Below are positions 1,175 through 11,863 of a stretch of 64,000 nt of DNA, in pieces; position 1 is the first letter of the stretch; each line of letters starts with the position of its first letter. The DNA lies in assembly GCF_013167455.1 (NCBI RefSeq), contig NZ_CP038328.1; one strand, 5' to 3'. Below the pieces are notes generated by a model. It worked only from the letters and a program-made list of their open reading frames with translations, was not told the DNA's origin and ran no database searches. The translations under genes and the position numbers were made by a program. Origin of the DNA: Escherichia coli O157:H7. Lineage in GTDB: Bacteria; Pseudomonadota; Gammaproteobacteria; Enterobacterales; Enterobacteriaceae.

Positions 1175-1519
1175 TTACACCGCAGCCACAATCTTAATTT
1201 CAACTTTATACTTCGGGTTCATCAAACCCGCTTGTACCGTGCAGCGCACCGGCGCATGACCCGCGACAACCCAGGCATCCCACGCTTTATTCATCGCCGC
1301 GAAGTCGTTTTTATCGGCCAGGAAAATGGTGGCATCCAGAATGCTCGATTTATTGCTGCCCTGTTTTTCCAGCACGGCGTCAATCTGCGCCAGGGTGTTG
1401 GCGGTTTGCTCAAAGGCATCGGCGTCGAGGTTTTCCGGTACACCAGTGTAGTAGAGCGTGTTGTTGTGGATTACTACATCAGACCAGCGGGCTTCAGCAT
1501 CGATACGAACGATAGTCAT
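1175..1519 (-). CDS. yoaB: RidA/YjgF-family protein YoaB
   Basis: ORF 1175..1567; start at MTIVRIDAEARW gives 114 aa; RidA-like C-terminus (VRCTVQAGLMNPKYKVEIKIVAAV). Confidence 0.8.
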   Translation of the reverse strand: MTIVRIDAEARWSDVVIHNNTLYYTGVPENLDADAFEQTANTLAQIDAVLEKQGSNKSSILDATIFLADKNDFAAMNKAWDAWVVAGHAPVRCTVQAGLMNPKYKVEIKIVAAV

Positions 1520-1624
1520 CATTTTATCCTCATTATCCTTCCATTTTCGTGCTGCAAAGACTGCCACAATGTGAGGTCGCCGTCACCACTTCAACTGGCG
1601 AAAGCGCCCTCATCCTGACATAAT

Positions 1625-1644
1625 CCCTGTTCAAATCAACAGGG
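1625..1644 (+). promoter_or_regulatory. Putative LexA operator (CTGT-N8-ACAG palindrome) just upstream of yoaA
   Basis: ccCTGTtcaaatcaACAGgg ends 6 nt before the GTG start of yoaA; matches LexA box consensus spacing. Confidence 0.45.
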
Positions 1645-1650
1645 GGTAGT

Positions 1651-3561
1651 GTGACGGACGATTTTGCACCAGACGGTCAGCTGGCGAAAGCGATACCAGG
1701 CTTTAAGCCGCGAGAACCACAGCGACAGATGGCGGTAGCCGTCACCCAGGCGATAGAAAAAGGCCAGCCGCTGGTGGTGGAAGCAGGAACCGGTACGGGC
1801 AAAACCTACGCTTACCTGGCCCCTGCGCTGCGGGCGAAAAAGAAAGTCATTATCTCGACCGGCTCAAAAGCGTTGCAGGATCAGCTCTATAGCCGCGATT
1901 TGCCGACGGTCTCAAAGGCGTTGAAATACACGGGCAACGTGGCGTTGCTGAAAGGGCGCTCAAACTACCTCTGCCTCGAACGTCTCGAACAGCAGGCGCT
2001 GGCGGGGGGCGATCTTCCGGTACAAATATTAAGCGATGTGATCCTGCTGCGCTCCTGGTCTAATCAAACAGTCGATGGTGATATCAGCACCTGCGTCAGC
2101 GTGGCGGAAGATTCGCAGGCGTGGCCGCTGGTCACCAGCACCAACGACAACTGTCTTGGCAGCGACTGCCCGATGTATAAAGATTGCTTTGTGGTCAAAG
2201 CACGTAAAAAAGCGATGGACGCCGATGTGGTGGTGGTAAACCATCATCTCTTTCTGGCGGATATGGTGGTTAAAGAGAGTGGATTTGGCGAGTTGATCCC
2301 GGAAGCGGACGTCATGATCTTCGACGAAGCCCACCAGCTACCGGACATTGCCAGCCAGTATTTTGGTCAGTCACTCTCCAGTCGACAACTGCTCGACCTG
2401 GCAAAAGACATCACCATCGCCTACCGCACCGAATTAAAAGACACCCAGCAGTTACAAAAGTGCGCTGATCGTCTTGCCCAGAGTGCGCAGGATTTTCGTC
2501 TGCAACTCGGTGAACCAGGTTATCGCGGTAACCTGCGTGAGCTGTTAGCTAATCCGCAAATTCAGCGGGCATTTTTACTGCTCGATGACACCCTGGAACT
2601 TTGTTATGACGTGGCGAAACTGTCACTGGGGCGTTCCGCCTTGCTGGATGCGGCATTTGAGCGCGCCACGTTGTATCGCACACGGCTGAAGCGGCTAAAA
2701 GAGATCAATCAGCCGGGCTACAGCTACTGGTACGAATGCACTTCGCGCCATTTTACTCTGGCTCTCACGCCGCTCAGCGTGGCGGATAAATTCAAAGAGT
2801 TAATGGCGCAAAAGCCCGGTAGCTGGATCTTCACCTCAGCAACGCTGTCGGTAAACGACGATCTGCATCATTTCACCTCGCGGCTTGGGATAGAACAGGC
2901 GGAGTCGTTGCTATTGCCAAGCCCGTTTGATTACAGCCGCCAGGCGTTACTCTGTGTGCCGCGCAACCTGCCGCAAACCAATCAACCGGGTTCCGCGCGG
3001 CAACTGGCGGCTATGCTGCGCCCGATCATCGAAGCTAACAACGGTCGCTGTTTTATGCTTTGTACCTCGCACGCCATGATGCGCGATCTGGCCGAGCAGT
3101 TCCGCGCTACCATGACGCTTCCCGTATTATTGCAGGGGGAAACCAGCAAAGGGCAACTGTTGCAGCAATTTGTCAGTGCCGGTAACGCGCTTCTTGTGGC
3201 AACCAGTAGTTTCTGGGAGGGGGTGGACGTGCGTGGCGATACATTGTCATTGGTGATTATCGACAAATTGCCGTTTACCTCGCCTGATGATCCATTGTTA
3301 AAAGCGCGCATGGAAGATTGCCGTTTGCGCGGTGGCGACCCGTTCGATGAAGTACAACTGCCGGATGCGGTGATTACTCTCAAGCAGGGAGTCGGGCGAC
3401 TGATTCGCGACGCCGACGATCGCGGGGTTTTGGTAATTTGTGACAATCGGCTGGTGATGCGTCCTTACGGCGCGACGTTTCTCGCCAGTCTGCCGCCCGC
3501 GCCACGCACCCGTGACATTGCCCGTGCGGTTCGTTTCCTTGCGATACCATCCTCCAGGTAA
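1651..3561 (+). CDS. yoaA: DinG-family ATP-dependent DNA helicase YoaA
   Basis: 636-aa ORF, GTG start; Walker A GTGTGKT, DEAH motif (FDEAHQL), Fe-S cysteines; recognised as YoaA. Confidence 0.85.
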   Translation: MTDDFAPDGQLAKAIPGFKPREPQRQMAVAVTQAIEKGQPLVVEAGTGTGKTYAYLAPALRAKKKVIISTGSKALQDQLYSRDLPTVSKALKYTGNVALLKGRSNYLCLERLEQQALAGGDLPVQILSDVILLRSWSNQTVDGDISTCVSVAEDSQAWPLVTSTNDNCLGSDCPMYKDCFVVKARKKAMDADVVVVNHHLFLADMVVKESGFGELIPEADVMIFDEAHQLPDIASQYFGQSLSSRQLLDLAKDITIAYRTELKDTQQLQKCADRLAQSAQDFRLQLGEPGYRGNLRELLANPQIQRAFLLLDDTLELCYDVAKLSLGRSALLDAAFERATLYRTRLKRLKEINQPGYSYWYECTSRHFTLALTPLSVADKFKELMAQKPGSWIFTSATLSVNDDLHHFTSRLGIEQAESLLLPSPFDYSRQALLCVPRNLPQTNQPGSARQLAAMLRPIIEANNGRCFMLCTSHAMMRDLAEQFRATMTLPVLLQGETSKGQLLQQFVSAGNALLVATSSFWEGVDVRGDTLSLVIIDKLPFTSPDDPLLKARMEDCRLRGGDPFDEVQLPDAVITLKQGVGRLIRDADDRGVLVICDNRLVMRPYGATFLASLPPAPRTRDIARAVRFLAIPSSR

Positions 3562-5139: not shown

Positions 5140-6825
5140 TTGAAGAAGGTTTGGCTTAACCGTTATCCCGCGGACGTTCCGACGGAGATCAACCCTGACC
5201 GTTATCAATCTCTGGTAGATATGTTTGAGCAGTCGGTCGCGCGCTACGCCGATCAGCCTGCGTTTGTGAATATGGGGGAGGTGATGACCTTCCGCAAGCT
5301 GGAAGAACGCAGTCGCGCGTTTGCCGCTTATTTGCAACAAGGGTTGGGGCTGAAGAAAGGCGATCGCGTTGCGTTGATGATGCCTAATTTATTGCAATAT
5401 CCGGTGGCGCTGTTTGGCATTTTGCGTGCCGGGATGATCGTCGTAAACGTTAACCCGTTGTATACCCCGCGTGAGCTTGAGCATCAGCTTAACGATAGCG
5501 GCGCATCGGCGATTGTCATTGTGTCCAACTTTGCTCACACGCTGGAAAAAGTGGTCGATAAAACCGCAGTTCAGCACGTTATCCTGACCCGTATGGGCGA
5601 TCAGCTTTCCACAGCGAAAGGCACACTGGTTAACTTCGTTGTTAAATACATCAAACGTCTGGTGCCGAAATATCATCTGCCAGATGCCATTTCATTTCGT
5701 AGCGCCCTGCACAACGGCTACCGTATGCAGTATGTCAAACCTGAACTGGTGCCAGAAGATTTAGCCTTCCTGCAATACACTGGCGGCACCACAGGTGTGG
5801 CGAAAGGCGCGATGCTGACTCACCGCAATATGCTGGCGAACCTGGAACAAGTTAACGCTACGTATGGGCCTCTGCTGCATCCGGGCAAAGAGCTGGTGGT
5901 GACGGCGCTGCCGCTGTATCACATTTTTGCACTGACCATTAACTGCCTGCTGTTTATCGAACTGGGTGGGCAGAACCTGCTTATCACTAACCCGCGGGAT
6001 ATTCCGGGGCTGGTCAAAGAGCTGGCGAAATATCCGTTTACCGCTATCACCGGCGTAAACACCTTGTTCAACGCGTTGCTGAACAATAAAGAGTTTCAAC
6101 AACTGGATTTCTCCAGTCTGCACCTTTCTGCAGGCGGTGGGATGCCTGTTCAGCAAGTGGTGGCAGAACGCTGGGTGAAACTGACCGGACAGTATCTGCT
6201 GGAAGGTTATGGCCTGACCGAATGTGCGCCGCTGGTCAGCGTGAACCCCTATGATATTGATTATCATAGCGGTAGCATTGGTTTGCCGGTGCCGTCGACG
6301 GAAGCCAAACTGGTGGATGACGACGATAATGAAGTATCGCCAGGTCAGCCAGGTGAACTTTGCGTCAGAGGTCCACAGGTGATGCTGGGCTATTGGCAGC
6401 GTCCGGATGCTACCGATGAAATCATCAAAAACGGCTGGTTACACACTGGCGACATCGCGGTAATGGATGAAGAAGGATTCCTGCGCATTGTCGATCGTAA
6501 AAAAGACATGATTTTGGTTTCCGGTTTTAACGTCTATCCCAACGAGATTGAAGATGTCGTCATGCAGCATCCTGGCGTACAGGAAGTCGCGGCTGTTGGT
6601 GTACCTTCCGGCTCCAGTGGTGAAGCGGTGAAAATCTTCGTAGTGAAAAAAGATCCATCGCTTACCGAAGAGTCACTGGTGACCTTTTGCCGCCGTCAGC
6701 TCACGGGCTACAAAGTACCGAAGCTGGTGGAGTTTCGTGATGAGTTACCGAAATCTAACGTCGGAAAAATTTTGCGACGAGAATTACGTGACGAAGCGCG
6801 CGGCAAAGTGGACAATAAAGCCTGA
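5140..6825 (+). CDS. fadD: Long-chain-fatty-acid--CoA ligase FadD
   Basis: 561 codons from a TTG start ([14 protein letters not shown]...); AMP-binding motifs ([17 protein letters not shown]); ORF track extends to upstream ATG at 5074. Confidence 0.9.
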
Positions 6826-6843
6826 GCGTTAAGTCAGTCGTCA

Positions 6844-6870
6844 GACGCCGGTTAATCCGGCGTTTTTTTT
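6844..6870 (+). terminator. Intrinsic terminator after fadD
   Basis: acgccgg-ttaat-ccggcgt hairpin followed by T8 run; lies where the sRNA SroD is mapped in K-12 as I recall (not annotated here). Confidence 0.6.
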
Positions 6871-10252: not shown

Positions 10253-11863
10253 TCAGTTGTCGCCTTTGAATACGGTTCCCGCAGGGAGCACTGGTGTTTT
10301 TTCCAGGGCTTCAACCGGTGTCTGCGGGAGATAATGTTCAACTTGATGAGCCGGAATGTCGGCGTAATCCTGTTTCAGCCAGCGAATAAATCCGCCGACT
10401 TTCACCAGTAAAATGACGAGGAAGGGAAGGGCTGTGAGCACGACGGTGGTTTTCATCGTTTCCAGCGAAGCACCGGTAAACAAGATGGAAAGCGGGATCA
10501 GAGTGATCACCACGCACCAGAAAAGACGCAGCCCACGGTCAGGATCGTCACCTTCCTGGAGATTACGCGTACTGGTCGCCGCCATGGTGTAGGCCACTGC
10601 ATCCATATGCGAGGCAAGGAAAATAATCATCACGCCCAGGTATGCGGCGAGGAACAATTTACCGGCTGGCAACGACATCAGAACTTGCTGTACAGCTGTT
10701 TCGCCGCCCAGAGTTTCCAGCACCTGTGGGACGTTGATTACGCCATTGATAAACTGATGAATGGCATAGCTTTCCATTACGCCGAAGAAGAACCAGCAAC
10801 CGACGGTGCTGCCGAGGATCAGTCCCCAGATAACTTCTTTAATCTTACGACCGCGGGAAACGCGGGTGACAAACATTGCTACGCCAGGGGTGTATGAGAT
10901 CCACCACAGCCAGTAGAAAACGGTCCAGTTGCGGGTAAATGAACCATCGCCAAGCGGATCGGTGAATAAGCTCATTTGCAGGAAGTTTTGCGTGGTCAGG
11001 CCGATGGCATTGATGATGCTGTTGGTAATAAATTCGGTTGGACCGACAATCAGCACCAGTAATGGCAGCAGGAACGCGCCCCAGCCAACCATTTTGCTCA
11101 GACGTTGCAAACCGTTGTTGATACCAATCCATGAGCTTAGGCAAAAAATGCCGCCGGAAAGCAGGATCACAAATGCCTGCACGGTGAAGTTATCGGGTAA
11201 ACCGGTCAGTGCGGAAAGTCCACGAGTAAAGGTTGCTGCGGTGACAACAAGGGAAATAGTCAGTGCGCCGACAGTGGCGATCAGGAACATCAAATCAACC
11301 AGTTTTCCCCATGGGCCTTGCGGGCGAACGCCGGTAATCGCGGCAATAATGCCGGAAAGACTCAGACCTTTGTTTTTCCGCACATGAAAGTGATAAGCCA
11401 TGATTAATGAGGCCAGCGTATAAGTTGCCCAGGCGCTGATGCCCCAGTGGAAGAAGGAGTAAGGGACGCTAAATTCGAGTGCCTGTTGTGAACGCGGTGC
11501 GATATTTAATCCAGGCGTTTGATAATAATAGGCCCATTCAGCAACCCCCCAATAAAGCGTAGAAGAACCTAAACCGGCACAAATAAACATAAACAGCCAG
11601 GAGAGCGTGCTGTATTCCGGTTTTCCTTCGCCAAGACGAATATTGCCGTATTTACTGGTGGCTAAATAAATCACTAGTCCCATTGCCAGCAAAACCAATA
11701 CCTGTACTGCGGAACCTAACGTACGCGTAACAAAAGTGTATATTGCGTTGGCCGCGTCGGCCGATTGTTGTGGGAAAAGGCTTAATGCAGCTGCGATGAA
11801 AAGAATGGCCACCAGGCTGATGCTTATCAGCGGCACATCTTTTTTCTTAACATTGCTCATCAT
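10253..11863 (-). CDS. yeaV: BCCT-family transporter YeaV
   Basis: 536-aa polytopic membrane ORF; true start may be further downstream. Confidence 0.75.

Follow-up and report, generated by a model that had tools for sequence, protein, structure and literature searches.

The 20-bp palindrome CCCTGTTCAAATCAACAGGG at positions 1625..1644 of the window (the whole 64,000-nucleotide stretch of DNA that was analyzed) is almost certainly a real site, a weak LexA operator (SOS box) of the yoaA promoter; its core CTG-N10-CAG occupies 1627-1642, and the feature is assigned to neither strand. The operator is already known, having been published and genetically validated in 2021, and LexA-dependent repression through the yoaA box has been shown by that genetic work (PMC8378479); our own analysis shows the sequence of the site, its score, and its conservation, whereas the exact promoter hexamers, the point where transcription starts, and repression by occlusion are what we infer.

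The letters of the window bear out the CTGT-N8-ACAG palindrome that the initial annotation had read at 1625-1644, with CTGT at 1627-1630, the N8 spacer TCAAATCA at 1631-1638, and ACAG at 1639-1642; within the 16-bp core CTGTTCAAATCAACAG (1627-1642), CTG and CAG stand 10 bp apart, as in a LexA box. The local order is CCTGACATAAT, CC, CTGT, TCAAATCA, ACAG, GG, GGTAGT, and GTG, where GGTAGT (1645-1650) separates the end of the 20-mer from the yoaA start codon at 1651, so that the palindrome does end 6 nt 5′ of the GTG as had been stated. The yoaA coding sequence (1651..3561, plus strand, 636 aa, GTG start) appears in both the ORF list and the RefSeq annotation, where its product is an ATP-dependent DNA helicase; YoaA is a DinG/XPD-family helicase and a partner of HolC, the chi subunit (PMC8378479, PMC4636137). 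The divergent neighbor yoaB, annotated in RefSeq as a RidA-family protein (1175..1519, minus strand), had been placed about 130 bp away, and the two start codons are indeed 131 bp apart, which makes the intergenic region 131 bp; the distance between the yoaB start codon and the operator is 105 bp. Elsewhere in the window, the sRNA sroD (Rfam RF00370) gives a full-length match at 6784-6869 (plus strand; 115 bits, compared with a gathering score of 50), the only Rfam match in the 64 kb.

Adjoining the operator is a probable extended -10 element, TGACATAAT (1616..1624, plus strand), composed of TG at 1616-1617 and the hexamer CATAAT at 1619-1624; the operator CTG begins 2 bp past it, and the site therefore abuts the predicted promoter. 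We assign a promoter role to TGACATAAT, and a putative transcription start near it, because the element is conserved and not because of a promoter scan: a simple promoter and terminator scan of 1450-1720 called neither a sigma-70 promoter nor a terminator, the -35 at yoaA being weak. The candidate -35, TGGCGA (1596..1601, plus strand), matches TTGACA at 3 of 6 positions and lies 17 bp 5′ of CATAAT. AGGGGG (1641..1646, plus strand) is the probable Shine-Dalgarno sequence for the GTG and overlaps the 3′ arm of the operator.

Sutera et al. (2021, J Bacteriol 203:e00228-21, PMC8378479) described a yoaA box, CTG(N)10CAG with N10 being TTCAAATCAA, at -24, that is, 24 nt 5′ of the GTG that opens the ORF; the box had been predicted by Courcelle et al. 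(2001), and the site in the window, CTG-TTCAAATCAA-CAG, does not differ from it, although the chromosome is of the O157:H7 type and not K-12. When the 132-bp yoaA intergenic region was fused to luxCDABE, AZT caused rapid induction; most of this induction, above all its early phase, was gone in lexA3(Ind-), and a CCC(N)10GGG box mutant showed high constitutive yoaA::lux expression with no further induction (PMC8378479). According to the published primer (PMC8378479), the mutant box is GTCCCTTCAAATCAAGGGAC; 10 bases are altered in it, among them CC and GG on either flank, so the CTG/CAG triplets are not isolated by this mutant. Positions 1604-1659 of the window match the flanks of that mutagenic primer (PMC8378479), and the 71-bp region 1590-1660 occurs unchanged (100% identity) in a K-12 MG1655 derivative and with an identity of 99% or more in 4842 of 5423 E. 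coli genomes; because this region is identical, the K-12 experiments apply to the window as well.

Expression data agree with the fusions. RNA-seq places yoaA among the classical SOS genes, with 4.0-fold induction by AZT and a lexA dependence of 1.6-fold (PMC11228462), and early induction of yoaA in an SOS time course is weak (PMC11002266); induction this modest, with so little dependence on lexA, fits a weak operator. In the same time course yoaB was not induced (log2 fold change 0.03 to 0.28, then -1.0); it is nonetheless listed in the SOS gene table of that paper, presumably because it has the intergenic region in common with yoaA (PMC11002266). A 2025 review of DinG-like proteins gives LexA control of yoaA as established. 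We found no report of direct LexA binding at yoaA by footprint, EMSA, or ChIP in the literature covered, outside of which lie Courcelle 2001 and Wade 2005. The proposal, made from the palindrome, that a LexA operator puts yoaA under SOS control is thus supported by the lexA3 and box-mutant lux fusions (PMC8378479) and by RNA-seq (PMC11228462), and the experiment named as its check, SOS induction of yoaA in wild type compared with lexA(Ind-), had already been passed in the literature (PMC8378479).

Conservation among relatives follows the same lines. One genome per species was scanned, yielding 557 YoaA relatives; the best 80 of the 557 were used, all of them from Enterobacteriaceae (genera included Escherichia, Citrobacter, Salmonella, Enterobacter, Raoultella, Klebsiella, Kosakonia, Kluyvera, Atlantibacter, and Siccibacter), and upstream DNA was available for 79. 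In all 79 species, CTG-N10-CAG comes after TGACATAAT, 77 of them having an offset of 2 bp and the other 2 one of 3 bp; the 23 distinct 20-mer boxes among these species (again from the best 80 of 557) have CTG and CAG invariant, while the interior varies freely, with TTCAAATCAA, GCGATTTAAC, TGCAAAAATA, and GGAATTTTTC among the variants. At its fourth base the box has either T or G, and at the partner position either A or C, as is also the case among published LexA boxes (PMC3009722). Across the 79 species conservation is thus concentrated on the recognition triplets, as would be expected of a LexA operator. In an anchored comparison of 75 distinct orthologous sequences, the block CTGACATAAT has no variant and the spacer upstream of it is variable: TGGC is kept at -35 spacing, but the -35 to -10 spacer is not conserved. 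GGGGG follows CAG in most orthologs, with GAGAGAG in its place in the Enterobacter clade. Taken as sequence, this pattern is the footprint that one would expect where an operator abuts a promoter.

Several orthologs carry an additional stretch at the 5′ end of yoaA. In L074, L075, L077 (Atlantibacter), and L079, about 54 nt upstream of the start of the tblastn match, 30 additional in-frame nt separate the box-adjacent start GTGACGGAC from a second GTGACGGACGATTT or GTAACGGACGATTT; L023, L026, and L027 have the same kind of 5′ extra, of 15-18 nt, between GTGACGGAC and the second GTGACGGACGATTT or GTAACGGACGATTT. The stretch looks like a short duplication or insertion, and the LexA box stays beside the first GTG.

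By itself the motif is not above chance in the window. CTGT-N8-ACAG matches once in the 64 kb compared with 0.56 expected, and at least one match was found in 43 of 100 shuffles; CTG-N10-CAG matches 30 times compared with 12.5 +/- 2.8 expected from dinucleotide shuffles, none of which reached 30. These matches are almost all intragenic, almost all with a GC-rich interior; the surplus is probably an effect of frequent CTG/CAG codons and not of LexA sites. We also computed a heterology index (HI) with a matrix of the Berg-von Hippel form built from the 18 LexA boxes in Table 4 of Thomassen et al. 2010 (PMC3009722). With this 18-box matrix the yoaA box has an HI of 15.35 (18.0 on the opposite strand), a poorer value than that of any of the 18 reference boxes (0.6 to 12.8 in leave-one-out scoring), and it ranks 21st among the 127,962 20-mers of the window, 20 others being equal or better. 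What costs it is the CC/GG flanks in place of the usual TA/TA, together with C at positions 8 and 13, at which the reference boxes almost always have T and A. Among the orthologs (best 80 of 557 relatives) the HI ranges from 9.35 to 16.6, with the E. coli box among the weakest. The customary HI cut-off, attributed to Lewis et al. 1994 and Fernandez de Henestrosa et al. 2000, is reportedly roughly < 15. A poor matrix score had been named as grounds for refuting the proposal, and on this point the outcome is borderline: 15.35 here, and 13 according to Courcelle et al. 2001 as tabulated in a 2024 PNAS paper (PMC11228462). The box is weak, and its score alone could not establish the site; what sets it above chance is its fixed register to the conserved -10 in 79 species together with the published genetics.

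Other sites of this kind occur in the window. CACTGGTGTTTTTTCCAGGG, at 10289-10308, matches CTG-N10-CAG perfectly; its interior is T-rich and its HI is 12.49 on the minus strand. It falls in the last codons of a 536-aa ORF (10253..11863, minus strand), just 5′ of the next minus-strand ORF, and we know of no link between it and SOS. Since CACTGGTGTTTTTTCCAGGG outscores the yoaA box, the score alone does not pick out functional boxes. A further CTG-N10-CAG with an AT-rich interior, TTCTGTGAAATAAACCAGAC at 52860-52879 (symmetrized HI 16.26), lies within a 447-aa ORF (52176..53519, minus strand). The best matrix scores in the window that come without a CTG triplet, at 1008 and 1112 (HI 12.0-12.1), fall between yoaC and yoaB, in 420 bp of AT-rich non-coding DNA (754-1174), and are most likely artefacts of AT-richness.

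The yoaA box has close counterparts among known E. coli operators. The polB operator GACTGTATAAAACCACAGCC and the dinG operator TATTGGCTGTTTATACAGTA are likewise weak or asymmetric LexA boxes, with published HI values of 13 for polB, 8.6 for dinG, and 13 for yoaA (PMC11228462), so that yoaA equals polB, at the weakest value in that table; all three are high-heterology boxes located 5′ of DNA-repair enzymes and induced 3 to 5-fold (PMC11228462). DinG and YoaA are, moreover, paralogous XPD/DinG-family helicases whose genes are both LexA-repressed (PMC4636137; 2025 review), but their boxes depart from consensus in different ways: in the yoaA box both CTG and CAG are perfect and the flanks poor, whereas in the dinG box one CTG is broken (TTG). 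The strong consensus operators of umuDC and sbmC (TACTGTATATAAAAACAGTA) share with yoaA the CTGT-N8-ACAG architecture and the repressor, and differ in HI (0.3-2, compared with 13-15 for yoaA) and in induction (50-fold, compared with 4-fold; PMC11228462).

Two readings would dispense with LexA at this site. One takes the palindrome to act in the yoaA leader as an RNA hairpin, masking the Shine-Dalgarno sequence or pausing transcription, LexA being irrelevant; folded as RNA, the 20-mer does form a 7-bp stem with a 6-nt loop (-8.6 kcal/mol, z = -3.68 relative to shuffles), its 3′ arm overlaps the probable ribosome-binding site AGGGGG, and positions 6 and 15 of the box pair as T:A in 11 of 23 ortholog variants and as G:C in 7 of 23. 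Yet the constitutive mutant GTCCCTTCAAATCAAGGGAC folds equally well (-8.9 kcal/mol) and has lost repression (PMC8378479); the predicted transcription start lies inside the 5′ arm, which would give an mRNA without the full hairpin, and the RNA that begins at 1631 does not fold stably (-2.7 kcal/mol, z = +1.96). Among the 23 variants, only 7 keep pair 2/19 complementary and 5 break pair 6/15; the stem is not followed by a T-run, and the 1450-1720 scan called no terminator. We consider the hairpin very improbable, largely refuted as it is by a constitutive mutant that preserves it. The other reading is that the palindrome arose by chance and regulates nothing, given that CTG and CAG are very common in E. 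coli DNA; the single CTGT-N8-ACAG match that 43 of 100 shuffles equal or exceed, the 30 CTG-N10-CAG matches, and the 21st rank in HI would all suit it. What it does not accommodate is that CTG and CAG are invariant in 79 species, in fixed register to an invariant -10, while spacer and interior vary, or that the box mutant is constitutive and lexA3 blocks induction (PMC8378479); refuted by conservation and by the published mutant, coincidence is scarcely credible.

A different kind of alternative retains the LexA site and adds to it. Induction of yoaA::lux by AZT is biphasic, and the slow second phase persists in lexA3, where at 180 min expression reaches about 30% of the wild-type level and stands 6-fold above that of untreated cells; this late lexA3-independent phase was not reported for recA or dinB fusions and was not seen in the box mutant, and Sutera et al. 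propose for it an unknown alternative relief of LexA repression (PMC8378479). A second input acting through the box or the adjacent promoter, either a competing protein or a growth-phase change, could cause derepression without LexA cleavage and would explain the late phase in lexA3 (PMC8378479); the SOS time course puts yoaA among genes thought to be regulated beyond LexA (PMC11002266), the block CTGACATAAT and the C that follows it are conserved more strictly than a -10 alone would need, and the strict conservation of CTGACATAATC beside the box might be an extra constraint from such an input. On the other side, the box mutant is already maximal, so nothing can be concluded from its failure to be induced further; small drops in LexA are enough to derepress a weak operator, and the late phase could follow changes, late in growth, in the level of the lexA3 protein, in plasmid copy number, or in the supply of lux substrate. 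No candidate for a second motif that would explain the late phase was found at the yoaA locus. We regard a second input of this general kind as unlikely, and the more specific version, a yoaA operator-promoter with a derepression input independent of LexA cleavage and tied to growth phase or starvation, as quite unlikely.

For the LexA operator itself we propose the following mechanism. A LexA dimer would sit on CTG-N10-CAG at 1627-1642; transcription is predicted to start near 1631-1633, within the box, because CATAAT lies at 1619-1624 and TG at 1616-1617, and the dimer would thus extend from about -7 to +12 and prevent RNA polymerase from setting up a productive complex. In response to DNA damage or replication gaps, RecA would stimulate LexA to cleave itself, freeing the promoter so that the YoaA helicase is made. 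Because the box is far from consensus, repression would be weak and induction modest.

We conclude that the palindrome is the known LexA operator of yoaA, a weak real operator that could be recovered by reading the sequence only, and to which conservation of the box across the family adds modest extra support. The sole part of the locus with residual novelty is the late lexA3-resistant phase. YoaA and HolD compete for the chi subunit, and excess YoaA is toxic; LexA control of yoaA ties this replisome-associated repair helicase to the SOS response.
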